Virus record (IMG/VR): IMGVR_UViG_3300035670_000062
Location: 49,099-113,098 of that record
Source: a virus
Length of the DNA stretch: 64,000 bases
Reading direction: 5' to 3' (one strand)
Positions within the stretch are counted from its first letter, which is position 1. The number at the start of each line of letters is the position of its first letter. A program made the position numbers and the translations under genes. Under the pieces are notes generated by a model. It searched no databases, had not been told where the DNA came from, and worked only from the letters and a program-made list of their open reading frames with translations. This document shows positions 3,381 through 57,436 of the stretch, one piece after another.

Positions 3381-3710
3381 ATGAAAACATCAGAACTAAA
3401 AAATTTAATAAAAGAGGCAGTAAGAGAGGCAATTAAAGAAGAATTAAAAGAAATATTATTAGAAGCAATAAAATCTCCTAAATCTCAAATTAATGAACAT
3501 ATGATACCTCAAGTAAATTTATCCTCATCATCACCTCAAACAATGATAGATAAAAGAAGAGCGTATCAAGATGTAATAAATCAAACATCTCTAAATTTTT
3601 CATCTAAAGATATATCACAACCATTTATCCCAACTCAAACAGATCCTATAAATGGTGCATTACCTTCTGGTGAATTAAGTATGGATCAAATAATGAATCT
3701 AATGAAATAA
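3381..3710 (+). CDS. Hypothetical protein with a MKTSEL..LIKE leader
   Basis: Starts MKTSELKNLIKEAVREAIKEELKEILLE; TATTTATA at 3369-3376. Confidence 0.7.
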   Translation: MKTSELKNLIKEAVREAIKEELKEILLEAIKSPKSQINEHMIPQVNLSSSSPQTMIDKRRAYQDVINQTSLNFSSKDISQPFIPTQTDPINGALPSGELSMDQIMNLMK

Positions 3711-4117
3711 TGGCATTTAACCAACAACAAATAAATCCCCTAGATATAGATCCTAATGTTGCTATTGGAATTAATATTCCATTTTCTGCATTAGCTGTAT
3801 TTACATCTAATTATACAACAAAAGATGCAATTAGAAATAATTTATTAAATTACTTTTTAACTAATAATGGGGAAAGATTCATGAATCCATTATTTGGAGG
3901 TGGGTTAAGAGGATTTTTATTTGAACAAATAACAAATAATAATTTAGAATTTCTTGAAGGAACTATTAGTAATGATATAGCTGATTCATTTCCTAATGTT
4001 ATAGTAGATACTTTAAATATATTAAAAAATGAAGATAAAAACACTATAATAATAGAATTTAAATACAGCATAAGAAATACTAATATTCAAGATTCAATAG
4101 AAATATCATTTCAATAA
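3710..4117 (+). CDS. Baseplate wedge subunit / sheath initiator (T4 gp25-like)
   Basis: AIRNNLLNYFLTNNGERFMNPLFGGGLRGFLFE is the GPW_gp25 signature. Confidence 0.9.
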   Translation: MAFNQQQINPLDIDPNVAIGINIPFSALAVFTSNYTTKDAIRNNLLNYFLTNNGERFMNPLFGGGLRGFLFEQITNNNLEFLEGTISNDIADSFPNVIVDTLNILKNEDKNTIIIEFKYSIRNTNIQDSIEISFQ

Positions 4118-5967
4118 TGGAAAATAAATCAATAAAATACATAAATAGAGACTTTTCAAGTTTTAAAACAAAATTAGTAGAATTTGCTAAAACATATTTT
4201 CCTAATTCATATAATGATTTCTCACCCTCTTCGCCAGGGATGATGTTTATGGAAATGTCAGCCTATGTTGGAGATGTTATGTCATTTTACTTAGATAATC
4301 AAATCCAAGAAACATTCATACAATATGCGAGACAAGATAATAATTTATATGAATTAGCATACATGTTTGGATATAAACCAAAAATTTCAACAGCAGCTCA
4401 AACAACAATAGACATATACCAACAAGTCCCAGCAATATTATCAGGTTCTAGTTATATACCTGATTATTCTTATGCTTTAACATTAAATGAAAATACTACA
4501 TTATCATCACCTATATCAGATAAAGTTAGTTTTTTAATAGAAGATAGATGTGATTTCAGTGTTTCAAGTTCATTTGATCCAACTGAAGTTTCTATATACC
4601 AAATAGCAGGTAATATACCTCAATATTTTTTATTAAAAAAATCAAGAAAAGCAGTTTCAGCAAATATAAAAACTCAATCATTTATATTCAATGATTTTAC
4701 ACCATTTCCAACAATATCAATAACTGATAATAAGATATTAGGAATACTTGATATAACTGATAGTGATGGAAATAAATGGTATGAAGTAGATCATTTAGGA
4801 CAAGAAATGGTATTTGATAATATAAAAAATACAAATCCAAATGACCCAAATACATACACAGATATTGATGTTCCATTTTTATTAAAATTAAAGAAAATCC
4901 AAAAAAGATTCTCAACAAGAATTTTAAATAAAACAACACTCCAAATCCAGTTTGGTGCTGGTAATCCTAATTCAATTGATGAAGAAATAACTCCTAACCC
5001 AAATAATGTAGGTTTAGGATTACCATTTAAAAAAACAAAACTTACAACAGCTTTCTCACCTGATAATTTCTTATTTACAAATACTTATGGAATTGCTCCA
5101 ACTAATACAACTCTAACAGTAAGGTATTTGTCTGGTGGTGGGGTTGAAGCTAATGTCCCCTCAAATTCTTTAACAAGAATAAATAAAAATACAATAAAAT
5201 TTAATTCAATAAATTTAAACTCATCAACAGCTGACTATATATTCAATTCATTATCAACAACTAATCCTCAAGCAGCAGATGGAGGAGGATCAGGAGACTC
5301 AATTGAAATTATAAGACAAAACACATTAATGAGTATTTCAGCTCAAAATAGATCAGTAACATCAAATGATTATTTAATTAGAGCTCTTAGTATGCCTAGT
5401 GATTATGGTACAATTTCAAAAGCTCATATACAACAACCTCAATTAGTAGATAATCAAGTATCAACAATTGAAACATTAAATTTATTTGTTTTATCTAAAG
5501 ATAATAATGGGTATTTATCAACATCATCAAATACTTTAAAAAATAATCTAAGAACATACTTGTCTCAATATAGAATGATTGGAGATAACATTGAAATAAG
5601 AGATGCTTTTATAATTAATATAGCAGTTGATTTTGAAATTATAGTACTTCCTAATTTTAATAATAATCAAGTAATTTTATCTTGTATAGAAGTATTAAAA
5701 TCACATTTCAATATAGATAATTGGCAAATCAATCAACCAATTTTCTTACGTGATATATATGTAAAATTAGATAGAGTAGAAGGAGTACAAACAGTAAAAA
5801 ACATAAAAATAAGTAATAAAGCTGGAGTATCCCTTGGATACTCAGAATATGGTTATGATATTGAAGGAGCAACACAAAATCAAATAATTTACCCATCATT
5901 AGATTCAAGTATATTTGAACTAAAATACCCAAACCAAGATATAAAAGGGAAAATATCACCATTATAA
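4117..5967 (+). CDS. Baseplate wedge protein (T4 gp6 / baseplate J-like)
   Basis: YINRDF..K..L...YFP..YNDF..SSPGMMF..AYVGD N-terminus and QNRSVT..DY motif; follows gp25. Confidence 0.85.
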   Translation: MENKSIKYINRDFSSFKTKLVEFAKTYFPNSYNDFSPSSPGMMFMEMSAYVGDVMSFYLDNQIQETFIQYARQDNNLYELAYMFGYKPKISTAAQTTIDIYQQVPAILSGSSYIPDYSYALTLNENTTLSSPISDKVSFLIEDRCDFSVSSSFDPTEVSIYQIAGNIPQYFLLKKSRKAVSANIKTQSFIFNDFTPFPTISITDNKILGILDITDSDGNKWYEVDHLGQEMVFDNIKNTNPNDPNTYTDIDVPFLLKLKKIQKRFSTRILNKTTLQIQFGAGNPNSIDEEITPNPNNVGLGLPFKKTKLTTAFSPDNFLFTNTYGIAPTNTTLTVRYLSGGGVEANVPSNSLTRINKNTIKFNSINLNSSTADYIFNSLSTTNPQAADGGGSGDSIEIIRQNTLMSISAQNRSVTSNDYLIRALSMPSDYGTISKAHIQQPQLVDNQVSTIETLNLFVLSKDNNGYLSTSSNTLKNNLRTYLSQYRMIGDNIEIRDAFIINIAVDFEIIVLPNFNNNQVILSCIEVLKSHFNIDNWQINQPIFLRDIYVKLDRVEGVQTVKNIKISNKAGVSLGYSEYGYDIEGATQNQIIYPSLDSSIFELKYPNQDIKGKISPL

Positions 5968-5986
5968 TATATTTATAATAAAAAAT

Positions 5987-6475
5987 ATGAAAATTTTAAA
6001 CGAAATAGGAAATTTAATACTACTTTTAATAGCTGTAGTTTTAGGTTCAATATTATTACCTATAGGTATTTTATGGAATGTGTATAAATCTATATTGAAA
6101 TCTAAAGGTTATAAATTTTTAACAACTATTAAATTAATATTATTATATTGGTTGAGATTGTTATATCAAGTGTGGGTTGTTATTAAACAAACATTTCTAT
6201 ATGTTGCTTATTTAATAGATTTATTAGGTAATGTGATATTAGGAGAATTATTAGAATCAACAATGTCTAAATCACCTCAACATCTATTTGGGAGAGGGGA
6301 AATAACAATTTCTGCAGCTTTAGGATACTTAAAAAGAAGAAATGAATTAACATTAGTTGGGAAAATTTTATGTAAAATATTAAATAAATTAGACCCACAT
6401 TATGAAGATCATTGCATATCATCTATTGAGTTATATGAATATAAAGAATCTTTAAAAACAAAATCAAAAAAATAA
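5987..6475 (+). CDS. Putative membrane protein
   Basis: N-terminal hydrophobic helices and a D..GN..ITIS..LD...HC pattern; own TATTTATA at 5970. Confidence 0.6.
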   Translation: MKILNEIGNLILLLIAVVLGSILLPIGILWNVYKSILKSKGYKFLTTIKLILLYWLRLLYQVWVVIKQTFLYVAYLIDLLGNVILGELLESTMSKSPQHLFGRGEITISAALGYLKRRNELTLVGKILCKILNKLDPHYEDHCISSIELYEYKESLKTKSKK

Positions 6476-6476
6476 A

Positions 6477-6773
6477 ATGAAAAGAAGTGAATTAAGACAA
6501 CTTATTAGAGAAACATTAAACCAAGTTAATGAAAACGAATATTATGGTGAAATCCAAGAACCATTAAACCTATATGATAAATTAGATGAAGTCCTAACAG
6601 ATTCTATGATGACATTCAGTATGGGAACCTCTGAAGAAGATTTTGACTCAGCTGATAATACTCAAAAAGATAAAATTCAAGATATAATGGATCAAGCTAT
6701 CAATTATTTACATAAATCAAAAATATCATTTGATGAGGTAATACGATTAATAGGAAAAGATTACCAAAAATAA
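6477..6773 (+). CDS. Leader-bearing hypothetical protein (MKRSELRQLIRE...VNE)
   Basis: Shared N-terminal leader followed by an acidic cargo region. Confidence 0.7.
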   Translation: MKRSELRQLIRETLNQVNENEYYGEIQEPLNLYDKLDEVLTDSMMTFSMGTSEEDFDSADNTQKDKIQDIMDQAINYLHKSKISFDEVIRLIGKDYQK

Positions 6774-6800
6774 AAAAATAACAGTTATTAAATAAAAATT

Positions 6801-7797: not shown

Positions 7798-7819
7798 AGC
7801 CCTAAATAGGGCTTTTTTT
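7796..7819 (+). terminator. Rho-independent terminator AAAGCCCT-AAAT-AGGGCTTT+T run
   Basis: Perfect stem plus T-tract; identical copy at 13087. Confidence 0.8.
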
Positions 7820-7843
7820 GTCTATTTATAATAAAATAAAGAT

Positions 7844-10210: not shown

Positions 10211-10235
10211 TGTATTTATAATAAAACCAATAACT

Positions 10236-12382: not shown

Positions 12383-12387
12383 AGACA

Positions 12388-12437: not shown

Positions 12438-12737
12438 TTGTCTAGATACTCTCAAATACCTCAAATTAAATCCCCTAATAGGAAATTAATGTATAAAAAC
12501 ATTAAATATCCTCAAATACCAAGAAATATTAATGATATTTATGTTTACACTACTATAGGAGACAGATTTGATACTTTAGCATTACAATATTATAATGATT
12601 CTTCATTATGGTGGATTATATCAATTGCAAATGAATCATTACTTCAAGATTCTTTAATTCCCCCAATTGGGTCTCAAATTAGAATACCTACAAATTATTT
12701 AAATATTTTAGATGAATTTAATAGAATAAACATATAA
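12438..12737 (+). CDS. Baseplate wedge protein with LysM-like domain (T4 gp53-like)
   Basis: GDRFDTLALQYYNDSSLWWIISIAN...G.QIRIP; TTG start. Confidence 0.85.
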   Translation: MSRYSQIPQIKSPNRKLMYKNIKYPQIPRNINDIYVYTTIGDRFDTLALQYYNDSSLWWIISIANESLLQDSLIPPIGSQIRIPTNYLNILDEFNRINI

Positions 12738-13089
12738 AAATAAACAAATAAACATGAAAAAATCAGAACTAAGACAAATCATTAAAGAAGAAATTTCTAA
12801 AGTATTAAAAGAAGATACAAATACTGAAGTCCAAATAACTCCATATTATGATTTTTATAAAATAATTTTTCCATCAGGATTCGAAGATGAATTTTTCGAA
12901 TCTAAAGATGAAACTAAATTATTTACAGATACAATAATGGGAAACAACCATTATAATAAATTAATTGATAATTTAAAGAAGAACAATATTCCATATAAAG
13001 AAAGAAAAGCAAGATTAGATAATTCTGTTAGAATAGAAATACCTAGAACTTTATGAAATTAGATGAATTTAACAGAATAAACATATAAA
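12708..13089 (+). repeat. 31-bp direct repeat (12708-12738 / 13059-13089) flanking a leader-gene cassette
   Basis: TTAGATGAATTTAA(T/C)AGAATAAACATATAAA, one mismatch; duplicates the 3' end of the gp53-like gene. Confidence 0.9.
12754..13056 (+). CDS. Leader-bearing hypothetical protein (MKKSELRQIIKEEISKVLKE)
   Basis: Shared leader; flanked by direct repeats. Confidence 0.8.
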   Translation: MKKSELRQIIKEEISKVLKEDTNTEVQITPYYDFYKIIFPSGFEDEFFESKDETKLFTDTIMGNNHYNKLIDNLKKNNIPYKERKARLDNSVRIEIPRTL

Positions 13090-39216: not shown

Positions 39217-39463
39217 TATTTCAACCACCTCAACTCATACAATACGTGAGTTTAATGAAAATATAGACTCTACCGAACTTCTTTGGCATCGGGATTTAAA
39301 AGACCGTAAAGTAACAATATTAGAGGGTAATGGTTGGTATTTTCAAAGAGACAATGAACTTCCTTTGGAATTAAAAGAAGGAGTTAGTATATTTATACCA
39401 AAATTAGAATGGCATAGAGTGATTAAAGGAAACACTACATTAAAAATAAAAATAGAAGAATGA
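39200..39463 (+). CDS. Cupin-fold small protein
   Basis: WHRD...V.ILEG.GW...IFIPK.EWHRVIKG. Confidence 0.65.
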   Translation: MKPYINISTTSTHTIREFNENIDSTELLWHRDLKDRKVTILEGNGWYFQRDNELPLELKEGVSIFIPKLEWHRVIKGNTTLKIKIEE

Positions 39464-39993
39464 AAAAATCAGAACTTAGACAACTTATTAGAGAAGAAAT
39501 CTTAGCAGAAGCTAAGAAAAAAGACAAATCAGGTTTACCATTTGCGTTAGCAGCTAACCTTGAAAAATATGGAAAACCACAAACTCCAAAAGATGCTAAA
39601 CTTGTTGATTTCACTCAAAAACAAGAAAAAAATGTAAAGAAAACAGCAGAAAAACTAAAAAAATCAATTAAAGAAGATTTAGGTAACTACATGTTTTTCC
39701 AAAACCTTAAAACCATTAAACAAATGGTTGATGATTTGCTTAAATTAGATGAAAAAATGGTTGATGATATTTTAGCAAATGAACATGATTGGGCAAATGA
39801 CCATATTACAACATCAAAAGATGATGTTGAAGAAGTACATAATTTTTTAATGAATAAAAAAGTTGCTATGTCTGTTGAAATGAATGAAAAGAAACAATTG
39901 TCTCCTAAACAAAAGAAAATAGCCTCAGCAGCATCACCAGAAGATGAAATAACTAGTGATGATTTTAAAGTATTAAGAAAAAATAAAAAATGA
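39460..39993 (+). CDS. Leader-bearing modular hypothetical protein
   Basis: MKKSELRQLIREEILAE; internal IKE and MNE junctions. Confidence 0.75.
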   Translation: MKKSELRQLIREEILAEAKKKDKSGLPFALAANLEKYGKPQTPKDAKLVDFTQKQEKNVKKTAEKLKKSIKEDLGNYMFFQNLKTIKQMVDDLLKLDEKMVDDILANEHDWANDHITTSKDDVEEVHNFLMNKKVAMSVEMNEKKQLSPKQKKIASAASPEDEITSDDFKVLRKNKK

Positions 39994-40829
39994 AAAAAAG
40001 CGAATTAAGACAACTTATTAAAGAGTCACTTAATAATAAATATAAATTAGATTCATGTAATTGTGGTTGTAATGTATGTGAGAATACTGGGAATAAAGGC
40101 GTTATTCTAAATGAAAACATAGCTCCCATACAAATATCTGAAAACATAAAATACCACATTAATAATCGCTTACCCTTAACAGAAAATACATTTAGATATG
40201 GCTCAGATGCATTTTTAGATTTATGGAAAGAAGCACGTCATTTATATTCAAGAAATGCTATTCATGTTAATGAATCTGACAAGGAAATTTTAATGGAAAC
40301 TAATTTAGGTGAATACGGAATATATGAAGGACAAAAAGTACCTTTAGACATGCCTATGGTTGACGAAAATACAGATGAAGACAAAGAAGATAACAAAACT
40401 TGGAGTTCATATGAACAAAAAATGGTAAATCAAATATTGCGTGCTAAAAAAGATGGCACTCCCATATTCGAATTACCTATGAAAACACAAGATTTTTATC
40501 GTAAAAATAAAGATAAATTTACTAAGTCATTAAACGAAGCAGAATTCAAAGGTAAAGATGTAGAGTTAAACAAACCAAAACGTGGTGGTTCTAAAAAGTT
40601 TTATGTATATGTTAGAGACCCTAAAACCAAAAAAGTTAAAAAAGTATCATTTGGGGATTCTGGAGGATTATCAACTAAAGTAAATGACCCAAAAGCAAGA
40701 AAAGCTTTTGCAGCAAGACATGATTGCAAAAATAAAAAGGATCGTACTTCTGCTGGGTGGTGGAGTTGTAATCTTCCTAAATATGCTAAATTATTAGGTA
40801 TAAAAAGTACTTTTACTGGATATTGGTAA
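39990..40829 (+). CDS. Leader-bearing modular hypothetical protein
   Basis: MKKSELRQLIKE; LNE and VDE junctions; basic C-terminal module (KKVSFG..ARKAFAARH.C..AGWWSC). Confidence 0.75.
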   Translation: MKKSELRQLIKESLNNKYKLDSCNCGCNVCENTGNKGVILNENIAPIQISENIKYHINNRLPLTENTFRYGSDAFLDLWKEARHLYSRNAIHVNESDKEILMETNLGEYGIYEGQKVPLDMPMVDENTDEDKEDNKTWSSYEQKMVNQILRAKKDGTPIFELPMKTQDFYRKNKDKFTKSLNEAEFKGKDVELNKPKRGGSKKFYVYVRDPKTKKVKKVSFGDSGGLSTKVNDPKARKAFAARHDCKNKKDRTSAGWWSCNLPKYAKLLGIKSTFTGYW

Positions 40830-41736: not shown

Positions 41737-42282
41737 ATGAAAAAATCAGAACTTAGACAACTTATTAAGGAGGAGATTAAACAAATTATTTCCGAAAAAT
41801 TTATTAATCTCATAGGAGAAGATAATATTAAACCATACATTCAAGATATATGGAATATAATGCAAAGAACATATAAATCTATAGGTGGTTTTAAGACAGC
41901 TAATTCTCCTGAAGAATTATTAAATAAAGTATCATTTGCTAAACTTGTTAAGAAAGATAATAAAATAATAGCAGCAATTTTATATAAAGATAAATTAGGA
42001 AGAAAAACCATAGCAGGGGGAAGTGATGGGAGTACAGAAGGAGTTAAATGGATTAAAAAAGTATTCCAAGAAGAAATACAACAACAACGTTCATGGGGAG
42101 AATTTAGTGGTAAAATGGAATCATTGATGTTAAAATATGGAGGTATTCCTATCCCCAACTCAGAAGCAGAAAGTATATTAGGTAAAGATATAATTGAAAA
42201 AAATAAAGATGGTTACCATTATACAAGACTAATTAATGGAGAACCTCATGAGAAAATAATAATAGGACATTTAGGAACTTAA
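41737..42282 (+). CDS. Leader-bearing hypothetical protein (MKKSELRQLIKEEIKQIISE)
   Basis: Shared leader followed by a globular cargo domain. Confidence 0.8.
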   Translation: MKKSELRQLIKEEIKQIISEKFINLIGEDNIKPYIQDIWNIMQRTYKSIGGFKTANSPEELLNKVSFAKLVKKDNKIIAAILYKDKLGRKTIAGGSDGSTEGVKWIKKVFQEEIQQQRSWGEFSGKMESLMLKYGGIPIPNSEAESILGKDIIEKNKDGYHYTRLINGEPHEKIIIGHLGT

Positions 42283-43020: not shown

Positions 43021-43563
43021 ATGTATAAAACATGCCGTATTGGATTCACAGGCACAGTCTCAGTTGGTAAAACTACTTTAGTAAATGCTTTAAAAGAATT
43101 ACCTCAATTTAAAGATTATAATTTTGCAACTGAACGTAGTAAATATTTAAGAGATTTAGGTATTCCTTTAAATACTGACTCTACATTAAAAGGTCAAGCA
43201 ATATTTTTAGCAGAAAGATGCTCTGAATTACTGCAGGATTCATTAATAACAGACAGAACTCTTATTGATGTGATATCCTTTACAAACTTAGCTAAATCAA
43301 TAACAGTAAAAGAAGCAGATGATTTTGAAAGACTAGCATCAAACCTCCTTAAAGAATATGACTATATATTCTATATATCCCCAGAAGGAATCCCTGTAGA
43401 GGACAATGGAATTAGAACAACAGACTTAGAATATAGAAATAAAATAGATAAAAATATTAAAAAAATAATTAGAAAATATAAATCTTCAATCAAAAATTAC
43501 CATGAAATAAGTGGTACAACCGAAGAAAGAATTAAACAAATATTGGACGTTATATATTTATAA
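43021..43563 (+). CDS. NadR/AAA_28-type P-loop nucleotide kinase
   Basis: GTVSVGKTT, ITDRT.ID, YDYIFY, EDNGIR and GTTEER motifs. Confidence 0.8.
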   Translation: MYKTCRIGFTGTVSVGKTTLVNALKELPQFKDYNFATERSKYLRDLGIPLNTDSTLKGQAIFLAERCSELLQDSLITDRTLIDVISFTNLAKSITVKEADDFERLASNLLKEYDYIFYISPEGIPVEDNGIRTTDLEYRNKIDKNIKKIIRKYKSSIKNYHEISGTTEERIKQILDVIYL

Positions 43564-43800: not shown

Positions 43801-44487
43801 ATGAAAAAATCAGAATTCAAAAAACAAATAAAAGAGGAAATAATTTCCATATTAAAAGAACAAACAGTGGTCGATAAAACTACAAAACCAGAATCTCTAA
43901 AAGGTAAAGATCCTCAAACAGTAAAAACTGCAATTGAAACTGCTAAAAAAACAAATAAACCTGTTACTATAGCTGAAGAAGATGGTAATGAATTAGAAGT
44001 GGGAGATATAGTAACAATTCCTATGAGTTTAACTATTGATCCATACAATAAAAGAGGTGAAGAAGGTAAAATACTTATAAGGAGTTCAGATGGAATGGTA
44101 GTTGTAATTGAATTTAATGATGGTTCTTTAGGATTATATGATCCCGATATATTTATGGATTCTTTAGATGAAGGTAGAGGAAGACCTAAAAAATCTGAAT
44201 CTAAAAAAGAAGATGATGAAGATGAAGAAGATGTAAAGGATGATTGGGAAAAACCTGAAGCTGATGAAGATGGTGATAAAGATAAAGAACCATCAAAAGC
44301 TGAATTAGCTAAAATGAAAAAAGATTCTGTAGCTACTATATCAAATAAATTACAAAAAATTGTAAAACAAATGAAAGATAAAGTAGAAGAATATAAAACA
44401 GCAGAAGGAGATAAAAAAGAAGCTATTAAAGATGAATTAAAAGAGTTAACTAAAGAAAAGAAAAAACTTGAAAATCAATTATCATAG
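43801..44487 (+). CDS. Leader-bearing modular protein with an SH3/KOW-like insert and an AT-hook-like motif
   Basis: MKKSEFKKQIKEEIISILKE; LEVGDIV..G.I; LDE-GRGRPKK; coiled-coil end. Confidence 0.7.
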   Translation: MKKSEFKKQIKEEIISILKEQTVVDKTTKPESLKGKDPQTVKTAIETAKKTNKPVTIAEEDGNELEVGDIVTIPMSLTIDPYNKRGEEGKILIRSSDGMVVVIEFNDGSLGLYDPDIFMDSLDEGRGRPKKSESKKEDDEDEEDVKDDWEKPEADEDGDKDKEPSKAELAKMKKDSVATISNKLQKIVKQMKDKVEEYKTAEGDKKEAIKDELKELTKEKKKLENQLS

Positions 44488-46681: not shown

Positions 46682-48553
46682 ATGGCAGACACACAATTAT
46701 TCCCAAGATTGAAAAGATTATTTTCAACAGATGTAATAATAAGAAACATAGGAGGAAACCAACTCCAAATAATGGATATAAATCAGATACAACAAGCTGG
46801 TAATTTACAAACAAATTCCTTAGTAGATAGGTTTAGTAGAATTTATACTACATCACCTACATCACCTAACTCATATTCTTCAAGATTAAATTATTCAACA
46901 TTGAGACCTAGTCTTTATAATGAGTATGATAATATGGATACTGATGCTATTGTATCTTCGGTATTAGATATAATAGCAGATGAATGTACTCTAAAGAATG
47001 ATATGAATGAAGTTATTCAAATTAAAAGTAGTGATGAAAATATTCAACAAATATTATATAATTTATTTTATGATGTTATGAATATTGAATTTTCATTAGG
47101 GTTATGGATAAGAAATATGTGTAAATATGGTGATTTTTTCTTAAAATTAGAAATTGCCGAAAAATTTGGAGTATATAATGTAATACCATATAGCGCATAT
47201 CAAATAGAAAGATTAGAAGGTCAAGATAAACAAAATCCCCATGCTATTAGTTTTAAAGTAATTGAAGAATATTCAACTTATGGAACTCATGGAATATTTA
47301 ATAATTCAAAAGAAACTATCACATTCGATAATTATGAAATGGCTCATTTTAGATTATTGACAGATACTAATTTTTTACCATATGGAAGAAGTTATATTGA
47401 AAACGCTAGAAAATTATATAAACAATATACTCTAATGGAAGATGCAGCTCTTATACATAGAATAGTAAGAGCACCAGAAAAAAGAATATTTTACATAAAT
47501 GTAGGTAACATCCCACCAGCTGAAGTAGAAAATTTCATGCAGAAAACAATTTCTAAAATGAAAAGAACACCTCACGTTGACCCACAAACAGGTGATTATA
47601 ATTTAAAATATAACATGCAAAATATGTTAGAAGATTTTTATGTTCCTGTTAGAGGTAATGATTCATCTACAAAAATTGAAGCATCACCTGCTCTTAATTA
47701 TGATGGGATGGCTGATATTGAATATTTAAGAAATAAATTATTTGCTGCTTTAAAAGTCCCCAAAGCTTTTATGGGATATGGAGAAGACACAAGTGGAAAG
47801 GCAACTTTGGCTGCCCAAGATATTAGATTTGCACGTACTATAGAAAGAATACAAAGAATAGTATTATCTGAATTAAATAAAATAGCATTAATACATTTAT
47901 ATACTCAAGGATATAGAGATGGAAATTTAACAAACTTTGAATTATCATTAACAACTCCATCTATTATTTATGACCAAGAAAGAGTAGCTTTGTTAAAAGA
48001 AAAAGTAGATTTAGCTGGACAAATGATGGAATTAAATTTGTTCCCATCTGATTTCATATATGATAATTTATTTAAACTTAGTGAAGATAAATACGATGAA
48101 TATAGAGACTTAATTAGAGAAGATGCAAAACGTAAATTTAGACTGACCCAAATAGAACAGGAAGGAAATGACCCATTAGAATCAGGTCAATCATATGGTA
48201 CCCCTCATGACTTAGCTTCATTATATGGGACTGGAAGAATAACTAAACCAGGAGAAATTCCAAATGGATATGATGAAAATAAAGAATTAGGAAGACCTAA
48301 AACTAATATGACTGATAGAAATACTCAAAAAGATAATTTTGGTAAAGATAGATTAGGAGCTAAAGCACAAAAAGAAAAAGAACCTCAATCCCAAAAACAA
48401 AAATTCAAAGGTAATTCCCCCCTAGCATTAGAAATGAAAAACATAATTAAAAAATTACCTCAAGCACCAAAATCAGAAAAAAACATTATATTAGAATCAC
48501 TTTCTAATAAAATCAATTTCCTAGATGAATCAAATTTAGAACTAGAAGACTAA
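46682..48553 (+). CDS. Portal protein (T4 gp20-like)
   Basis: MEDAALIHRIVRAPEKRIFYINVGN, EDFYVPVRG, DIEY...KLF.ALKVP and DIRFAR.I.R.Q motifs. Confidence 0.95.
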   Translation: MADTQLFPRLKRLFSTDVIIRNIGGNQLQIMDINQIQQAGNLQTNSLVDRFSRIYTTSPTSPNSYSSRLNYSTLRPSLYNEYDNMDTDAIVSSVLDIIADECTLKNDMNEVIQIKSSDENIQQILYNLFYDVMNIEFSLGLWIRNMCKYGDFFLKLEIAEKFGVYNVIPYSAYQIERLEGQDKQNPHAISFKVIEEYSTYGTHGIFNNSKETITFDNYEMAHFRLLTDTNFLPYGRSYIENARKLYKQYTLMEDAALIHRIVRAPEKRIFYINVGNIPPAEVENFMQKTISKMKRTPHVDPQTGDYNLKYNMQNMLEDFYVPVRGNDSSTKIEASPALNYDGMADIEYLRNKLFAALKVPKAFMGYGEDTSGKATLAAQDIRFARTIERIQRIVLSELNKIALIHLYTQGYRDGNLTNFELSLTTPSIIYDQERVALLKEKVDLAGQMMELNLFPSDFIYDNLFKLSEDKYDEYRDLIREDAKRKFRLTQIEQEGNDPLESGQSYGTPHDLASLYGTGRITKPGEIPNGYDENKELGRPKTNMTDRNTQKDNFGKDRLGAKAQKEKEPQSQKQKFKGNSPLALEMKNIIKKLPQAPKSEKNIILESLSNKINFLDESNLELED

Positions 48554-50032: not shown

Positions 50033-50059
50033 ATTAAAAAACAATCTCATAAAACATAT

Positions 50060-52558
50060 ATGAAAAATACACTTACAGAACAATACAGACTTATTAAAAT
50101 AGGTAAAGGAAATAAAGAAACTTTTTTAAAGGAAGCTAAATCATTATTCCCTAACTTACTTACAAATAGTTCAACATATAATGAAACTGAAAAGATTTTA
50201 AAACAAAAGGGAGTAATATCTGAAAATATTCATAGTTTGAATCCTATTGCATTTCCTACTACTAAAAAAGAATCATATGAAATAGCATTTAGTAAATTCT
50301 TAAAAGAAGCTAAAAAGGAAGAACCTAAAACTGAAACTTACGACAATAAGAATACTAAAAATTCTAATAACTTAATATTCGACCAAATAATGAGAGGATG
50401 TTATGTTGAAGCTAAAGTTGAGAAAAATAAAGACAAGACAATAGATGAAATTAAAGACATTGTTGTTAAAAATTTACAAAAAGATCCTATTTATTATACT
50501 AAAAATGGTGCTTTTGGTGAAGAAGGATTAGGATATGAAACTGAAGTTCCTGGTTTAGGTACTCCAAAAGAGGCTAAAGGTAAGTATAAATCAAGTGGAT
50601 ATGGTGATTTAAAAGAAAATACTACAAGATTATTTTATAGGATTCCTAATGAAATAAAAAATTTAGAAAAATATGGAGTAAAAATTACTATAGACCCTAA
50701 AAATACAGTTTCACCAATTCAAAGAATAGGAGTACCTGTAAATTTAGATGATGAAATATATGATAAAATAGAAGATATTCTATATAGATATAATTTAAAA
50801 CCCAAAAAATATTTTATCACACAAAAAGGCGTAAACGAAAACAAAGACACTGAAATTAAAATAGGAGACATTCTTATTAAAAATGGAAAAAAAGGAAAAG
50901 TTATAAAAGTGATGGATGATATGGTTAATGTTGATTTTGGTAACGGGGATGTTTACGGTATTACTTTAAGTAGAATTAAAGGAAATGAAATAGTAAACGA
51001 AAACAAAGATGCTGAAGTTTATGCTAAGAAAAAAGGTTTTACCACAAAAAAAGGATTAAATGAAAATAATAATTTAAAAGAAGGTAATGATTTTGGTGGA
51101 GCTGGTTTAATAGTTGTGGGTCGTACTCCAATAGATAATGATTTAATAGACCAAGCTGTAGAAGAAAGTGGTTTTTACGGAATATTTAATGCTAGAGAAA
51201 ATTATTGGTTTTTTCCTGAAGGTGAAGAAACAATAGATAGGCTAGAAAATGAATTAGAAACTATTTTTATTAAAAAAGGAATTAATGCTAGATTTGAAGG
51301 TCAATTTAATGAAAATAAAACAAACAATCAACCTAAATTCAAAAAAGGTGACAAAGTAACTTACCTAGGCCATCCAGGTGAAATTACTGCTGTTAATAAA
51401 GAAATGACTGGTGCTATTACATATAATGTTGCTTATAATAAAGGAACAGGTAGAACTAAAGCAACAAACATCTATAACAAAGATGGTGAAATTAAACCTT
51501 TAAATGAATCAAATTCAGAATATTTAGATAAATTATATGATATAATTTTAAAATATGTTAAAGATCCTGACGAAGCAGAACAAGAATTAGATGGATATAT
51601 AAGTCAAGGATGGAGTGGATTTTCAAATATGTTAATGTCTAATCTAAATAAAGATATGGATTTTATATCATTAACCCAACAAGGACATGATAAAGACATT
51701 CAAAGAAGAGAATCTGGATTAAATGAATCATATGGTTCAAATGGTGACTTTGATGGTACTGGTTTAATAGTAGTAGGTCGCACCCAAATAGATAATAATG
51801 AAATTGGAGATGTAATTGAAGATTTAGGTTATTATGGAGTATGGAATTCAAGAGAAGGATATTGGTTTATACAAGAAGATAAACCAACTCTTAGTTATTT
51901 AGAAGCTGATTTAGATGAAGAATTTGCTAAACGAGATATTAATGCTAGATTTGAAGCTCAATTTGGAGAGGATGAAATAGATTACGATGATGAAAATTTC
52001 TCAGACCCCCTAATAGATGGTGAAGAAGATTTATTTGAAAGTAAATGGAGAAAAACACAAAAAGAAAAAATAGTTAAAGAAAATATAAATAAAGAAATTA
52101 CCCAAATTAACAAAGATGCGGAATCAGAAGTTTTAGAAAGTAAATTATCTAAAATAAATGATGCTATTGAAAAAAGGGAATCTAAATTATCTAAAATAAA
52201 TGAAGATGAAGATTTAAAAGGATTAACTGACAATAAAAAAATTAAATCTCTACAAAAGGAAATAAAAACTTTAGAAAAACATAAATCTAAAATCGAGAAA
52301 CAATTAAATAAAGGCTCAAAACAAAACAAACCTAAGGAAATCAATGATGAAATCATAGATGAAACTGAGGGATTGAATTTCGAATATAAAGATTATTTTA
52401 ATTTAAACGAATCGATAGAGGAACAATTATCTTCAACACAAGAATCATTATTTACTTTAATCGAGGATTTATATGATGAATTAGGTAGCATGGATGAAGT
52501 AAAAAAATTAGTTAATTCTGCTTTAAACAACGTCGCTTTAAAATTTGGTGATTATTAA
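50060..52558 (+). CDS. Modular polyprotein-like head-associated protein
   Basis: Many short modules joined at (L/V/F)NE or LKE; duplicated GLIVVGRT..INARFE domain; immediately upstream of the prohead protease. Confidence 0.7.
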   Translation: MKNTLTEQYRLIKIGKGNKETFLKEAKSLFPNLLTNSSTYNETEKILKQKGVISENIHSLNPIAFPTTKKESYEIAFSKFLKEAKKEEPKTETYDNKNTKNSNNLIFDQIMRGCYVEAKVEKNKDKTIDEIKDIVVKNLQKDPIYYTKNGAFGEEGLGYETEVPGLGTPKEAKGKYKSSGYGDLKENTTRLFYRIPNEIKNLEKYGVKITIDPKNTVSPIQRIGVPVNLDDEIYDKIEDILYRYNLKPKKYFITQKGVNENKDTEIKIGDILIKNGKKGKVIKVMDDMVNVDFGNGDVYGITLSRIKGNEIVNENKDAEVYAKKKGFTTKKGLNENNNLKEGNDFGGAGLIVVGRTPIDNDLIDQAVEESGFYGIFNARENYWFFPEGEETIDRLENELETIFIKKGINARFEGQFNENKTNNQPKFKKGDKVTYLGHPGEITAVNKEMTGAITYNVAYNKGTGRTKATNIYNKDGEIKPLNESNSEYLDKLYDIILKYVKDPDEAEQELDGYISQGWSGFSNMLMSNLNKDMDFISLTQQGHDKDIQRRESGLNESYGSNGDFDGTGLIVVGRTQIDNNEIGDVIEDLGYYGVWNSREGYWFIQEDKPTLSYLEADLDEEFAKRDINARFEAQFGEDEIDYDDENFSDPLIDGEEDLFESKWRKTQKEKIVKENINKEITQINKDAESEVLESKLSKINDAIEKRESKLSKINEDEDLKGLTDNKKIKSLQKEIKTLEKHKSKIEKQLNKGSKQNKPKEINDEIIDETEGLNFEYKDYFNLNESIEEQLSSTQESLFTLIEDLYDELGSMDEVKKLVNSALNNVALKFGDY

Positions 52559-52578
52559 ATTAAAATAAATAAAATAAA

Positions 52579-53211
52579 ATGAATAGAACATTATTAATAG
52601 AAACTAATATATTAGTACCTTCATTATTAAAAGAAGAAAATTCTAATAATAATGGAAATATATTCATTGAAGGTATATTAGCTACCTGTGAAGTTGAAAA
52701 TGGAAATGGTAGATATTACCCTAGAGAATTATGGGAGAGAGAAATTAAAATCTTCGAAAATAAAATAAAAGCAGGTTCAACTGAATGCGCAGGGGAATTA
52801 GATCACCCTCAATCAGAAATAATCAATCTAAATAATGTATCTCATGCTATTAGAAAAGTATGGTGGAATGGAGATAAAATTATGGGATTAATAGAAATAT
52901 TCTCAGATCAGGGTCCTAAAGGAACTACAGCAGGAAGAATAGCAGGAGCATTAATTAGAAATAATCTATCAGTAGGTGTAAGTAGTAGAGGGATGGGTTC
53001 ATTAACTGAAGTAAATGGAGTAATGGAAGTTCAAGATGATTTTTCATTATTATGTTGGGATTTAGTATCAAACCCATCAAACCCAAACTCATGGATGAAG
53101 GAATCAAAAGGTTCATTAAATGAATCTAGATTATCTTCAATAGATAAGTATTCTAAAGTAAATTCTATTATAACAGAAATATTATGTTCTAATGGAATGT
53201 GTAAAATTTAA
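52579..53211 (+). CDS. Prohead core protease (T4 gp21-like)
   Basis: NGNGRYYP, GELDHP, VSH, GVSSRGMGS and WDLVSNPS motifs. Confidence 0.95.
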   Translation: MNRTLLIETNILVPSLLKEENSNNNGNIFIEGILATCEVENGNGRYYPRELWEREIKIFENKIKAGSTECAGELDHPQSEIINLNNVSHAIRKVWWNGDKIMGLIEIFSDQGPKGTTAGRIAGALIRNNLSVGVSSRGMGSLTEVNGVMEVQDDFSLLCWDLVSNPSNPNSWMKESKGSLNESRLSSIDKYSKVNSIITEILCSNGMCKI

Positions 53212-53370
53212 AAATATTTTTTTATAAAAAATCGACTTTGATTTTTTTATATATATTTATACTCGTAAAATATACCATCACCCTCATTTATATGGTATTA
53301 TAGACAAAAATCAATAATTACGTTTTTCAAAATAAACGTACTTTCCCAACAATTAATTTAGGAATAAAAA

Positions 53371-54336
53371 ATGGCAAAAAGAGATCTATTCAAAGAAGCT
53401 ATTGCAGAAGCTAAAGCAGTAAAAGAAGTCGCGATTGCAAATGCAAAAATAGCATTAGAAGAAGCTTTCACTCCACATTTAAAATCAATTTTATCACAAC
53501 GTATCCAAGAAATGGAATATGAAGAAGATGAAGAAGAAACAATGAATATGGAAGAAAGTGAAGAAACATTAGACTTATCAGAAATTTTAAAAGAAATTGA
53601 GGATGATGAAGATATTATTGAATCTGAAGAAGAGGAAGATAAAGACATCGCTGAAATTTTAAAAGAAATTGAGGATGAAGTTGATAATGAAATGGAAGAA
53701 GAAGATGAAGAAGATGAAGAAGAAGAAGAATCATTAAATATCGAAGACATGACAGATGAAGATTTAAAAGACTTTATCGAATCAGTAATTAAAGACATGG
53801 TAGCAGCTGGTGAATTAGAACCAAATACTGAAATGGAAGATGATGAAATGGAAGATATGGATGATGAAATTGACTTAGAAATTGAAGATGATGAAACTGA
53901 AGATGAAGAAATTGAAGAAAACAACATCGATTCAGGAGCAGCTCCAAAATCATTTATTAAACAAAACCCTGACTATGTTATGGAGTTAAGAAATGAATTA
54001 AGAGAAGCAAACAAATCATTAATAATATTACGTAGTAAGTTAAATGAAGTTAATTTATTAAATTCAAAATTACTTTATACTAATAAAATTTTCCAATCTA
54101 ATACATTATCAACAAAAGAAAAAACAAGTATATTAGAATCATTTGATAAAGCAACAACAGTAAAAGAAGCAAAATTGGTATTTGAAACTTTGAACGAGGG
54201 TTTAAAAAGTAAAAAACAACCAATTAAAGAATCTTTAAGTATGGCTTCAAAATCAATGGGTTCACAACAAAAACCAAACCAAATAATTAACATAGATCCT
54301 CAAGTCCAAAGATGGAAAAAACTTGCGGGACTATAA
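53371..54336 (+). CDS. Prohead core scaffolding protein
   Basis: Extremely acidic centre with a coiled-coil C-terminus; between protease and major capsid. Confidence 0.8.
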   Translation: MAKRDLFKEAIAEAKAVKEVAIANAKIALEEAFTPHLKSILSQRIQEMEYEEDEEETMNMEESEETLDLSEILKEIEDDEDIIESEEEEDKDIAEILKEIEDEVDNEMEEEDEEDEEEEESLNIEDMTDEDLKDFIESVIKDMVAAGELEPNTEMEDDEMEDMDDEIDLEIEDDETEDEEIEENNIDSGAAPKSFIKQNPDYVMELRNELREANKSLIILRSKLNEVNLLNSKLLYTNKIFQSNTLSTKEKTSILESFDKATTVKEAKLVFETLNEGLKSKKQPIKESLSMASKSMGSQQKPNQIINIDPQVQRWKKLAGL

Positions 54337-54363
54337 ATTAAAAACAAAAACTAAAAACAAACA

Positions 54364-56016
54364 ATGTCACAATTAAATTCATTATTAGAAAGTGCATCTC
54401 AAAGTTTCAAAAATTTGAACAACGATGCAGCTAGACTAGCTAAAAAATGGTCAGCAACAGGTCTATTAGAAGGCCTAAGTAACGAGAACGAAAGAAACAG
54501 TATGTCTATGTTACTTGAAAACCAAGCTAAACAATTAGTATTGGAATCAAACAGTACAAACCAAGGTGGAGCTACCTTTTCAGGAGGTGGTCAAGGTGAA
54601 CAATGGAATGGAATTGCATTACCATTAGTGAGAAAAGTATTTGGACAAATATCTTCCAAAGAATTTGTTTCATTACAAACAATGAACATGCCTTCAGGTC
54701 TTGTATTTTACTTGGATTTCCAGTATGGACAATCAAAAAGACCAAATTTTGGACCTTCAGGAGACGTATTTGCTGAAACTTCATCATTATATGGTAACAC
54801 AAACCCAGGTGCTGCTGCAAACCCAGCAGGAGGTATGTATGGTGCTGGAAGATTTGGTTATTCAATTAATCAATTTAAAGCTACTGTAACTTCAAGTAAC
54901 GTAACTACAAGTTCTGCAGATTGGGTAGATGTTGATTATGATGCTGCTTTATCAGCTTCAATTGCTGCTGGTGATTTGACAAAAATTACTATCCCAATTT
55001 CTGGTTCATTAACTAGACCTGATTTGAAAGGTGTAAGAGCATTTAGTGTGTCTGCTTCTACTGCAAATCCTGCATTCTTATTACCTGCTTACACTTCAAC
55101 TGATGGAACTAACATTACGTTTGTATTTGCTTCAGGTTCAGGTGTAGCTCAAGGTGGTGTAGACGTATACTACAACCAACAACCAGTTGATAACAACAGA
55201 GGTGATTTTGAAGATGTAACAAACGGTGGTTTCCCTAATGCTCAATCTCAAACAGAACTTTCAATCCCATCAATTGATGTGAAAATGAAATCTGAAGCTA
55301 TTGTTGCTAAAACAAGAAAATTAAAAGCACAATGGACACCTGAGTTTGCTCAAGATTTGAATGCATACCAAGCATTAGACGCAGAAGCAGAATTAACTTC
55401 AATCATGAGTGAGTATATTTCAATGGAAATTGACTTAGAAATCTTAGACATGTTGATTCAAGATGCTTCAGGTTTCGATGAATATTGGAATGCTTCAAAC
55501 AACCAACAATTGAATGCTGCTAAAACAGGATACGATAACTTAGGTTTCTATAACACTCAAGGTCAATGGTTCCAAACATTAGGTACTAAATTACAAAAAG
55601 TAAGCAACAAAATCCATACTAAGACTATGAGAGGAGGAGCTAATTTCATGGTAATTAGCCCAACTGTAGCTACAATCATTGAATCAATTCCTGGATTTGC
55701 TTCAAACGCTGATGGTGATGCTGCTAAAAACAAATTTGCATTCGGTATCCAGAAAATGGGTCAAATGAATAGCAGATATGATGTATACAAAAACCCTTAC
55801 ATGTCTGAAAACGTGATTTTAATGGGTTATAGAGGTAGCCAATTCTTGGAAGCTGGTGCGGTATTTGCTCCATATGTTCCATTAATCCAAACACCTTTAG
55901 TATACGATCCAGATACCTTCACTCCAAGAAAAGGTATGTTAACAAGATATGCTAAGAAAATGATAAGACCAGAATATTATGGACGTGTATTCGTTTCTAA
56001 TACTGAGTTAGTTTAA
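54364..56016 (+). CDS. Major capsid protein (T4 gp23-like)
   Basis: KW...LLEG, LLENQ, LPLVRKVF, Q.M..PSGLVF, AKTRKLKAQWT.E.AQDL and APYVPL..F.P.KG..TRY motifs. Confidence 0.97.
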   Translation: MSQLNSLLESASQSFKNLNNDAARLAKKWSATGLLEGLSNENERNSMSMLLENQAKQLVLESNSTNQGGATFSGGGQGEQWNGIALPLVRKVFGQISSKEFVSLQTMNMPSGLVFYLDFQYGQSKRPNFGPSGDVFAETSSLYGNTNPGAAANPAGGMYGAGRFGYSINQFKATVTSSNVTTSSADWVDVDYDAALSASIAAGDLTKITIPISGSLTRPDLKGVRAFSVSASTANPAFLLPAYTSTDGTNITFVFASGSGVAQGGVDVYYNQQPVDNNRGDFEDVTNGGFPNAQSQTELSIPSIDVKMKSEAIVAKTRKLKAQWTPEFAQDLNAYQALDAEAELTSIMSEYISMEIDLEILDMLIQDASGFDEYWNASNNQQLNAAKTGYDNLGFYNTQGQWFQTLGTKLQKVSNKIHTKTMRGGANFMVISPTVATIIESIPGFASNADGDAAKNKFAFGIQKMGQMNSRYDVYKNPYMSENVILMGYRGSQFLEAGAVFAPYVPLIQTPLVYDPDTFTPRKGMLTRYAKKMIRPEYYGRVFVSNTELV

Positions 56017-56042
56017 TCATTTAAAACATAACTGAAAAGAAG

Positions 56043-56071
56043 GAGCCAAGTAAATACTTGGCTCTTTTTTT
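56043..56071 (+). terminator. Rho-independent terminator after the major capsid gene
   Basis: GAGCCAAGT-AAAT-ACTTGGCTC plus T-tract. Confidence 0.85.
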
Positions 56072-56131
56072 ATATGTAAACATTTGGTTACTTTAAAGAA
56101 AATTCATATATTTATAATAAAAAATAACAAA

Positions 56132-56764
56132 ATGAAAAAAAGCGAATTAAGACAACTAATCAAAGAAGAAATCTCTAAAATAAAAGAAATTGATAGCTAT
56201 GGTAAAATAGGAAAACAATACCCAGCCCCAGAGTATGAAGATGAACTTAAAGGGAAACTAACTAATCAAAAAAGATTGTTAAGAAAAAAGATGAGCCAAG
56301 ATAAATTTGCTAAAATAACAAAAGATTTATTTGATGATGCTTCTAAAGGATTAATTTTCATCTCAGACTACCCTAAGGATAATAAATATTCTGCACTTTT
56401 TGTAGATGAAAATAGTAAATATAAAAATCTTTTAACAGGAAAAGAAAATTATGGTTTAAATGATATACCCTATACATATAATAAAGCTTTACCAAAATCC
56501 GAAGCTATTACTCCTCCACATAAATTAGATATAAGGACTTTCCGCAAAATAATTTATGGTGTGCTTACATCTGGCCCTGGCGAGACATTTTACATTACTA
56601 ATTTCCTCCCAGACTCAGTTACTGGTATTGGAGATATGATTCAAGTGGGAAGAGGTGGATATGTAGTAGAAAAATCAAAATTTAAGAGAGAAAGTAGTGA
56701 TTATGGTTTTCCACAAGAATTAGGTAATGGTTTAGCATATGTCCCATTTTTCTTTAGAAATTAA
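56132..56764 (+). CDS. Leader-bearing hypothetical protein (start corrected from 56084)
   Basis: ATG of MKKSELRQLIKEEISKIKE lies downstream of the TATTTATA at 56109. Confidence 0.8.
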   Translation: MKKSELRQLIKEEISKIKEIDSYGKIGKQYPAPEYEDELKGKLTNQKRLLRKKMSQDKFAKITKDLFDDASKGLIFISDYPKDNKYSALFVDENSKYKNLLTGKENYGLNDIPYTYNKALPKSEAITPPHKLDIRTFRKIIYGVLTSGPGETFYITNFLPDSVTGIGDMIQVGRGGYVVEKSKFKRESSDYGFPQELGNGLAYVPFFFRN

Positions 56765-56794
56765 ATAATCATTTAAAACATAACTGAAAAGAAG

Positions 56795-56821
56795 GAGCCA
56801 AGTAAATACTTGGCTCTTTTT
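56795..56821 (+). terminator. Rho-independent terminator (repeat copy 2)
   Basis: Same hairpin as at 56043. Confidence 0.85.
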
Positions 56822-56887
56822 GTCTGTAAATATTTGGTTACTTTAAAGAAAATTCATATATTTATAATAAATAAACAAATAAATACA

Positions 56888-57436
56888 ATGAAAAAAAGCG
56901 AATTAAGACAAATCATCAAAGAAGAGATTTCTAAAGTATTAAATGAGGAAATTGACATATCTACTGAGTTAGTTAAATTTTTCCAAACTAATCCCTTCAC
57001 AAAAGAAAACCAGTGGTCACATGACTATGAAGCTAAAGATTACATTCAAAATGTAATGAATAGACCTTTAACTCCAAAAGAAAAAAGCCAAATTACTAGA
57101 ATGATAAATAAATATCGCGATGATTTTTGGGGAAAAAGTTACAGAGAAGAAAGAGATAAAGAAGATAAAACATCAAAGGAACGTTATTTAAATAATCTTC
57201 TTCCTTTAACTGTAGACAATGGAAGAGGAAGACCAGACAGTACATACTATACTGTAGCTAACACATACTATTATACAGACAACGATGGAAATACATCAAC
57301 TTCCCACATTGACTCTAAAAGTGGATACACTGATTATAAATTAAGAGATAAATGGATAAACACTCCAGTAGACAAAGCAACATTAGACAAATATTGGCAT
57401 CCAGGAACATTAAGAATGATAGGAATAAAAAATTAA
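56888..57436 (+). CDS. Leader-bearing hypothetical protein (start corrected from 56810)
   Basis: ATG of MKKSELRQIIKEEISKVLNE lies downstream of the TATTTATA at 56859. Confidence 0.8.
   Translation: MKKSELRQIIKEEISKVLNEEIDISTELVKFFQTNPFTKENQWSHDYEAKDYIQNVMNRPLTPKEKSQITRMINKYRDDFWGKSYREERDKEDKTSKERYLNNLLPLTVDNGRGRPDSTYYTVANTYYYTDNDGNTSTSHIDSKSGYTDYKLRDKWINTPVDKATLDKYWHPGTLRMIGIKN

Follow-up and report, generated by a model that had tools for sequence, protein, structure and literature searches.

A conserved N-terminal leader on unrelated small proteins of an uncultured T4-related phage resembles a capsid-targeting propeptide

The stretch of DNA analysed here, referred to as the window, is the right-hand 64 kb (64,000 nucleotides) of the 113-kb viral contig IMGVR_UViG_3300035670_000062. 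It was found that eleven plus-strand open reading frames (ORFs) in the window begin with the same N-terminal leader, MK(K/R/T)SE(L/F)xx(L/I/Q)I(K/R)E, which is called the tag below. The window has a G+C content of about 25–30%, and almost every gene lies on the plus strand. Its structural block comprises genes for baseplate wedge and hub proteins, a large terminase, a gp20-type portal protein, a gp21-type protease, a scaffold, and a gp23-type capsid protein, as well as phoH. Among cultured phages, Flavobacterium phage vB_FspM_immuto (160 kb; immuto below) is the nearest relative, with a capsid-protein identity of about 56–60% and the same order of genes from the portal to the protease, scaffold, and capsid. 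The contig is from an uncultured T4-related phage of Bacteroidota-type hosts. An initial annotation of the window had described the eleven ORFs and had read their leader as a portable tag that is tied to the gp21-type protease and loads proteins into the phage head. The positions of the ORFs and of the other features discussed here are listed in Table 1; each ORF is named by the first nucleotide of its start codon.

Table 1. Tagged ORFs, head and baseplate genes, and repeated units in the window (aa, amino acids; HMM, hidden Markov model)
Feature	Position	Strand	Basis or remark
Conserved 109-aa protein whose N-terminus (MKTSELKNLIKEA) is probably a look-alike of the tag or a degenerate form of it	3381..3710	+	Upstream of a gp25-like gene
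Tagged ORF, 98 aa, starts MKRSELRQLIRE	6477..6773	+	Between baseplate genes; leader HMM 26.9 bits
Baseplate wedge and hub genes flanking 6477			PHROG matches
Direct repeat copy 1, 3′ end of the gene upstream of 12754	12708..12738	+	30/31 identical to copy 2
Tagged ORF, 100 aa, starts MKKSELRQIIKEEISKVLKE	12754..13056	+	Inserted cassette, 31-bp direct repeat on both sides
Direct repeat copy 2 (31 bp)	13059..13089	+	Followed by terminator hairpin and late-type promoter of 13134
Tagged ORF, 168 aa	37995..38501	+	Leader and leader HMM
Tagged ORF, 177 aa, basic lysine-rich body	39460..39993	+	Leader and leader HMM
Tagged ORF, 279 aa, Cys-cluster body	39990..40829	+	Leader; homologue in relative G001
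Tagged ORF, 181 aa, 13-residue tag and GNAT-fold body	41737..42282	+
Tagged ORF, 68 aa	43579..43785	+	Late-type promoter motif immediately upstream
Tagged ORF, 228 aa, divergent tag (MKKSEFKKQIKEEIISILKE)	43801..44487	+	Leader HMM 20.4 bits
Large terminase	45065		Close relatives and synteny with immuto
gp20-type portal protein	46682..48553	+	Synteny with immuto gp20 annotation; similar N-terminus
gp21-type prohead serine protease, presumed tag remover	52579..53211	+	PDB 5jbl, E 2.5e-17
Acidic helical scaffold in gp22-like position, presumed tag-docking partner	53371..54336	+	Sequence; many (I/L)-x-E sites; immuto synteny
gp23-type major capsid protein	54364..56016	+
Capsid residues 56–61, K-Q-L-V-L-E, predicted maturation cleavage site	54529..54546	+	Conservation among relatives
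Terminator hairpin and late-type promoter unit, copy 1	56014..56131	+	Precedes 56132
Tagged ORF, 210 aa, first cassette 3′ of capsid gene	56132..56764	+
Terminator and promoter unit, copy 2	56765..56887	+	Precedes 56888
Tagged ORF, 182 aa, second cassette 3′ of capsid gene	56888..57436	+
Terminator and promoter unit, copy 3	57440..57553	+	Precedes phoH

Each of the eleven ORFs and its start was checked in the sequence, and the common leader was confirmed. A six-frame scan found the leader core at these eleven N-termini only, with no occurrence on the minus strand or inside an ORF, and none was found in the other 49 kb of the contig. For 56132 and 56888, a mechanical ORF list puts the starts at an upstream TTG; the ATG starts were preferred because a promoter-like motif falls between each TTG and ATG. 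The claim that the proteins diverge completely after the leader was borne out, since the bodies past residue 14 have no significant pairwise similarity. Pfam and PHROG scans of 57 tagged proteins gave four isolated matches for the bodies, weak or to domains of unknown function, and the leader matched no family model. ESM Atlas look-alikes of 39990 and 56132 were just nameless viral clusters or matches below the threshold. Is it the peptide or the DNA that is conserved? The invariant Ser4 is encoded by TCA, TCT, AGC, and AGT, and Leu6, Ile10, Lys11, and Glu12 are each encoded by two to four codons. In codons 2–14 of ten copies, the pairwise codon differences comprise 149 synonymous and 117 non-synonymous ones. 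Thus, the peptide is conserved while its codons vary, and selection acts on the peptide rather than on the nucleotide sequence.

The number of true members probably has to be lowered by one. The orthologues of 3381 sit directly upstream of a gp25-like gene in three relatives, and their N-termini read MKTDILKQLIKEA, MNIKVFKKLIKEA, and MDVTKFKKIIKEA, the latter two of which diverge from the tag. 3381 is probably a look-alike from a conserved baseplate-adjacent family, and the tally in the window is then ten canonical copies and one look-alike. A degenerate tag (MNNRLTRLIKEV) was also found on the homologue of 39990 in G001, a complete relative of 148.6 kb.

The anatomy of the leader was analysed with a profile of 58 distinct tagged proteins from the window and from loci L001-L029. 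The information content drops sharply to background at residue 21. Conservation extends beyond the search pattern, with E13 in 51, I, L, or V at residue 14 in 55, L18 in 28, and E20 in 28 of the 58 sequences. The leader has a 14-residue core, MKKSELRQ(I/L)IKEE(I), which in roughly half of the proteins is extended up to a (V/I)-L-(K/N)-E end. All copies have I-(K/R)-E at residues 10–12, which is partly imposed by the search pattern, and 27 of the 58 have an L-x-E ending at residue 20, which is not. A hydrophobic-x-E terminus had been described as usual for the leader; this holds for the 27 leaders just mentioned (residues 18–20) and not for the rest, and the I-I-S-E at residues 17–20 of the 41737 family is part of the body. 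The T4 protease gp21 cleaves after L/I-x-E, and the T4 capsid-targeting sequence (CTS) is a 10-residue N-terminal propeptide (PMC9026906). Both I-K-E12 and L-x-E20 satisfy this rule. In an AlphaFold model of 41737, the leader lies within an N-terminal helix (residues 3–17).

The gp21-like protease that had been reported at 52579 was confirmed by the structural match in Table 1, and it retains the catalytic His (DHP) and Ser (VSSRG) at positions that read Ala in the deposited 5jbl chain. Its N-terminus holds L-I-E at residues 6–8, and the N-terminus of T4 gp21 likewise holds LIE-9 (PMC9026906). Four capsid residues, K56, Q57, V59, and E61, do not vary across five aligned relatives (pattern K-Q-(L/I)-V-x-E; K-Q-I-V-S-E in immuto), and the capsid protein of Microcystis phage Mel-JY01 has K-Q-L-I-S-E at the equivalent place. 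The segment is followed by a variable Gly/Ser/Thr-rich linker and then by the conserved mature core, which a profile alignment to T4 gp23 anchors a few residues downstream of residues 56–61. The cleavage site of T4 gp23, L-T-E65↓A (the arrow marks the cut here and below), presumably lies at the equivalent position. The core of the tag, R-Q-(L/I)-I-K-E, repeats this predicted-site pattern, which is invariant in the capsid proteins. The pattern [KR]Q[LI][IV]xE occurs only 12 times in the 34,284 residues of the plus-strand ORFs: in nine leaders, at a second site in 41737, in one unrelated ORF, and at capsid residues 56–61. The match was noticed after the fact, but it is specific nonetheless. If one protease, perhaps along with one scaffold contact, acts on the tag and the capsid protein alike, such a shared hexapeptide is to be expected.

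Is the tag separable from the proteins that bear it? The body of 41737 has a predicted GNAT-like fold of high confidence (predicted local distance difference test score 93), and Foldseek found acetyltransferase matches for it (E 1e-5 to 1e-4, template modelling score about 0.5). The family of this body is present on many large viral contigs. Close homologues bear the tag or near variants of it (MKLIQLRQIIKEE, MKIIQLRQIIREE), whereas distant homologues start at the body itself (MRYHQLLVEK...), with a stop codon or unrelated or non-coding DNA immediately 5′ of it. Thus, the missing tag is not a gene-calling artefact. If 41737 were cut after E12, its new N-terminus would lie no more than one residue away from where the leaderless homologues start. 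From these comparisons, the tag appears as a portable 13-residue add-on in this GNAT family.

The cargo, that is, the bodies behind the tag, has further properties in common. The tagged proteins of the window are 68–279 aa long, and the median body in the collected set is 102 aa. The median isoelectric point is 8.2 for tagged bodies, compared with 6.0 for the proteome. The small size and the basic bias weakly fit DNA-associated internal proteins, and the GNAT-fold cargo recalls the packaged enzyme Alt of T4. A homologue in the complete relative G001 was found for two of the eleven tagged bodies, compared with 45 of the 55 untagged ORFs of the window. The cargo proteins thus change fast from one relative to the next, and each phage of the clade has its own set of about ten. 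The internal proteins of T-even phages are known as hypervariable, which matches this turnover (PMC3012670).

The motif TATTTATAAYAAA occurs 19 times on the plus strand and once on the minus strand of the 113-kb contig; 16 of the 19 lie in the structural 64 kb and three in the replication half. Baseplate, tail, and head genes typically have it 5–25 nucleotides in front of their ATG, and therefore it behaves as a late promoter of this phage. The initial annotation had placed this motif ahead of many copies of the leader. That was too broad, as it directly precedes only four of the eleven leader ORFs (3381, 43579, 56132, and 56888). It was also found that a unit of about 118 nucleotides, consisting of the hairpin GAGCCAAGTAAATACTTGGCTC with a T-run and then TATTTATAAYAAA, is present in three copies 3′ of the capsid gene. 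Two tagged cassettes come straight after the terminator of the capsid gene. In the DNA around 12754, a direct repeat flanks the ORF, and repeat copy 2 creates an 11-codon mini-ORF (MKLDEFNRINI, 13053-13088) overlapping the stop codon of 12754. This mini-ORF is most likely a by-product of insertion.

Sequencing runs gave a view of the cassettes in populations. In run X3, from freshwater and from another study, a contig joins 56039 to 56793, in register within the repeat; the body of 56132 is uncovered, and the capsid gene and 56888 are covered. Thus, some populations have the 56132 cassette and others lack it. Run X1 gave several joints of low likeness, such as 56167 to 56888 and 57432 back to 56108; they hint that an abundant relative has its cassettes in a different order, but 85% likeness is too low to interpret them. 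The RNA run X15 contained pieces similar to the capsid gene and none for the cassettes, which has no bearing on expression.

How widely is the tag distributed? It is restricted to phages: a back-translated leader pattern matched 20 IMG/VR contigs and had no match in 185,579 bacterial and archaeal genomes. Tagged genes occur in tandem arrays, with up to seven within 2 kb (locus L007). The leader HMM counted 11 copies on the present contig, at least 10 in G001, 8 in relative G009, and 10 in relative G013, all at ORF starts. In G001, a second sub-variant, MK(A/V/T/I)TEFRKLIREEVRKVL(K/N)E, is found on five ORFs (387, 146358, 146767, 147521, and 148426; loci L022 and L029), which are grouped at both genome ends and adjoin the terminal repeats. 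A word-based search of a collection of 5.8 billion proteins found 154 further leader-sharing proteins of 100–319 aa, and one of at least 320 aa (368 aa). No large enzyme was thus seen behind the tag, a negative that the search tool itself rates as weak evidence. The cultured phage immuto carries the tag as well, since immuto26A_191 starts with MKKSQLRQIIKE (L001:7293), and a small ORF located between its portal and protease genes (L001:17460) bears a leader too.

All the tag-bearing contigs of at least 18 kb that were examined are relatives, sharing the protease, the capsid protein, the terminase, or syntenic gene blocks. The tag is a trait of a single T4-like phage clade near immuto, with about 8–11 tagged genes per genome. 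The protease was found in four of the five long tag-bearing contigs, among them the two with a completeness of at least 90%, and the capsid protein in all five records searched (four tag-bearing IMG/VR contigs and cultured immuto). The leader peptide persists in contigs whose proteins are just 45–70% identical. A tblastn search with the 25-aa leader against a cultured-phage collection gave one weak match and missed the known immuto copy, so the method is too insensitive. The tag was not found in the 17 kb around the capsid gene of Microcystis phage Mel-JY01 and of the uncultured 484-kb phage LR756508, the latter of which has a leader-like match elsewhere in its genome. A run of paralogous ORFs starting with M(R/K)LK..(I/V)L(L/K)E lies 3′ of the capsid gene in LR756508.1 (L052 13775-17000); these starts may be another lineage-specific leader.

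How does the tag compare with known systems? The T4 CTS reads MKTYQEFIAE. Among the T4 proteins packaged in this way are IPI, an anti-restriction factor, and Alt, an enzyme that modifies the host. The internal proteins of T-even phages are diverse and share only a CTS, which, it has been suggested, T4-like phages in general use for loading proteins (PMC3012670; PMC9026906). The likeness to the T4 CTS (IPI, IPII, IPIII, and the Alt propeptide) is that both are, or in the present case would be, a short propeptide at the extreme N-terminus of unrelated, fast-diversifying small proteins and that both end in (L/I)-x-E; homologues of gp21 and gp23 and a gp22-like scaffold are encoded here too. In contrast, the tag has a different sequence and a length of 13–14 residues, often extended to 20, compared with 10 in T4, and there are about ten tagged genes per genome compared with three or four. 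The tag core duplicates the predicted cleavage site of the capsid protein, and the genes lie in cassettes with a terminator and a late promoter. The phages concerned are aquatic and uncultured, with Bacteroidota-type hosts, and their system is known from sequence alone.

Other parallels are more distant. Many head-internal or ejected proteins of the giant phages phiKZ, 201phi2-1, and SPN3US are cut after Glu by a gp21-type protease (PMC9026906). Their sites are S/A-x-E and no single common leader has been described, whereas one nearly invariant leader is reused here. Genes of T4-type phages are reportedly shuffled via repeated regulatory cassettes known as promoter stem-loops (PeSL). Here, too, repeated units flank small accessory ORFs and offer homology for insertion, loss, and shuffling, but each of them joins an intrinsic terminator to a late-type promoter, and a shared coding leader goes with them. 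A promoter of the early type, as in PeSL elements, was not what was found in these units, because TATTTATAAYAAA is shared with baseplate, tail, and head genes and is thus of the late type. Phage P1 is said to load the antirestriction proteins of its Dar system into the head via N-terminal targeting information. Phage, head machinery, and signal are unrelated to those described here, and P1 is not known to have a common short leader.

Taken together, I consider it fairly probable (about 0.6) that MKKSELRQ(L/I)IKEE(I) is a propeptide resembling the T4 CTS, which would load cargo into the prohead and then be cleaved. Late in infection, the tagged proteins would be produced either from late-type promoters of their own or as parts of late operons. 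During prohead assembly, the amphipathic N-terminal helix would dock the cargo onto the acidic helical scaffold core. The gp21-type protease would then cut the leader behind I-K-E12, with a further cut behind L-x-E20 in about half of the proteins. The mature proteins, small and often basic, would remain in the head and exit with the DNA at infection, and the tagged genes would travel as cassettes of terminator, late promoter, leader, and cargo. I infer docking, cleavage, head retention, ejection, and any role in the host. Injection into the host and an anti-defence role, both proposed in the initial annotation, are suggested only by analogy with T4 IPI and Alt. The earlier proposal of a portable tag tied to a gp21-type protease is thus consistent with the modularity of the tag, its I-K-E end, the head genes, the late promoters, the cassettes next to the capsid gene, the fast turnover of the cargo, and the match to the predicted capsid site, all of which is circumstantial support.

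Several observations weigh against this proposal. In 51 of the 58 leaders, Glu follows the proposed cut, whereas Ser, Ala, or Gln follows at the capsid sites of this group; the first gp21 site to be characterised, in T4 gp22, is a Glu-Ala bond (PMC9026906). The capsid cleavage site itself is predicted from conservation and from the position of the T4 gp23 site. No similarity to the CTS of T4 IPIII or IPII was found beyond the MK start and the hydrophobic-I-x-E end. Just four of the eleven copies have a late-type promoter of their own, and three copies lie among baseplate genes, not head genes. Finally, the leader and the gp21/gp23 clade do occur together, as the initial annotation had expected, but all tag-bearing contigs belong to one clade; therefore the co-occurrence with the protease is not independent evidence.

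Could the shared helix serve a purpose other than head loading? It might be an uncleaved docking or oligomerisation module for another partner; this might be a host target, a hub of the baseplate or tail, or a chaperone, for instance the GroEL-like protein of the phage. The three copies among baseplate genes would suit this, as would the conserved position of the 3381 family, with its tag-like N-terminus, beside a gp25-like gene, and an amphipathic helix could bind many partners. I regard it as unlikely, however, because the copies are scattered across 54 kb, their contexts differ in relatives, and no partner gene is conserved beside them. It also leaves three things unexplained: that the most conserved segment matches the predicted protease site of the capsid protein, that conservation ends sharply at a Glu, and that removal of the tag would recreate the N-terminus of leaderless homologues. 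A dedicated partner enzyme encoded next to the tagged genes was rejected, as the copies have no common neighbour.

The leader might instead be kept chiefly for its place in a mobile expression cassette, in which the promoter, the A-rich start, and the first codons would support efficient translation without a Shine-Dalgarno sequence in Bacteroidota and provide homology for shuffling, the peptide having no sorting role. Terminator and promoter units are indeed repeated around tagged genes, 12754 lies between the copies of the 31-bp direct repeat, one cassette occurs in some samples and not in others, and the upstream DNA is A-rich with no visible Shine-Dalgarno sequence. But the amino acids are held as the codons change, with the invariant Ser in both TCN and AGY forms, the shared upstream unit is missing from seven of the eleven copies, and the same peptide is found in contigs with proteins of 45–70% identity. 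Moreover, a signal at the mRNA level would not require 13–20 fixed residues ending in Glu, and this explanation seems quite improbable to me. Still more improbable, to the point of being rejected, is that the tagged genes are paralogues of one fast-evolving family whose sole conserved part is the N-terminus. The tandem arrays (up to seven genes in 2 kb, as in L007) and the small genes without family assignment would fit it; the bodies, however, have no detectable similarity and range from 68 to 279 aa in length, and the GNAT body has many leaderless homologues in other phages, where the tag was gained or lost. The mimicry of the capsid site, the synonymous codon variation, and the leaderless GNAT homologues weaken the docking, cassette, and paralogue explanations, respectively, and eliminate none of them.

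Sequences resembling cleavage sites were also noticed in other genes of the head region. An 832-aa ORF directly 5′ of the protease gene (50060-52558), which had no PHROG match, contains repeated (G/I/P/Q)(V/L/F)-N-E↓(N/S) sites, such as GVNE↓N, IVNE↓N, GLNE↓N, PLNE↓S, and GLNE↓S, which resemble the V-L-N-E end of the leader. It may be a prohead-core polyprotein cut by the 52579 protease. The N-terminus of the scaffold, MAKRDLFKEAIAE↓A (LLKQAIAE↓A in immuto), resembles the end of the T4 CTS, which reads QEFIAE↓A. This resemblance suggests that the scaffold itself is trimmed at a site equivalent to the T4 CTS end. In the portal protein, residues 597–605 contain the relaxed tag or cleavage pattern K-N-I-I-L-E↓S, 18 residues before the C-terminus, a possible C-terminal processing site.

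Other genes of the phage are of general interest. The tag cluster also holds a ferredoxin-family protein (38596-39216) and a thymidylate-kinase-like protein (43021-43563). An ORF amid the densest cluster of tagged genes (40887-41717) has an HNH-endonuclease-like C-terminus (phrog_20162, E 2e-11) and could be a homing element, adding to the plasticity of the region. The remaining 49 kb of the contig carries genes for replication and nucleotide metabolism, encoding UvsX, DnaB, the small subunit of ribonucleotide reductase, a GroEL-like chaperonin (L049:3524-5158), nicotinamide phosphoribosyltransferase (L049:17795-19267), and RNA ligase (L050:6377-7714), the last three in the first half of the contig. 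At least three studies provided metagenomes, from subsurface, freshwater, and marine sites, in which the phage of this contig was detected.

New in this work are the sequence of the leader and the clade that bears it, the number of tagged genes in each genome, the match of the tag core to the predicted cleavage site of the capsid protein, and the coupling to cassettes of terminator and late promoter; among the papers that were searchable, none contained the leader string. The match between the tag and the capsid site hints at the origin of such tags. A bolder idea, which I hold to be possible but doubtful, is that the system is an open gene-capture platform, in which a terminator, a late promoter, and a 13-residue leader are placed before any small gene and the leader works by copying the propeptide segment K/R-Q-L/I-I/V-x-E of the capsid protein, recognised by scaffold and protease. 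In that case, the full packaged or injected set, comprising well over 150 distinct proteins in metagenomes, would be readable from sequence alone. The system can be tested at the bench, as Flavobacterium phage immuto, whose host is Flavobacterium sp. LMO8, is cultured and carries the tag, and the tag could become a handle for packaging foreign proteins in Bacteroidota phages. If the tag does load the head, sequence by itself would reveal which proteins a large group of uncultured aquatic phages packages and probably injects, and the loading principle known from T4 would be older and more flexible than the T-even phages imply.

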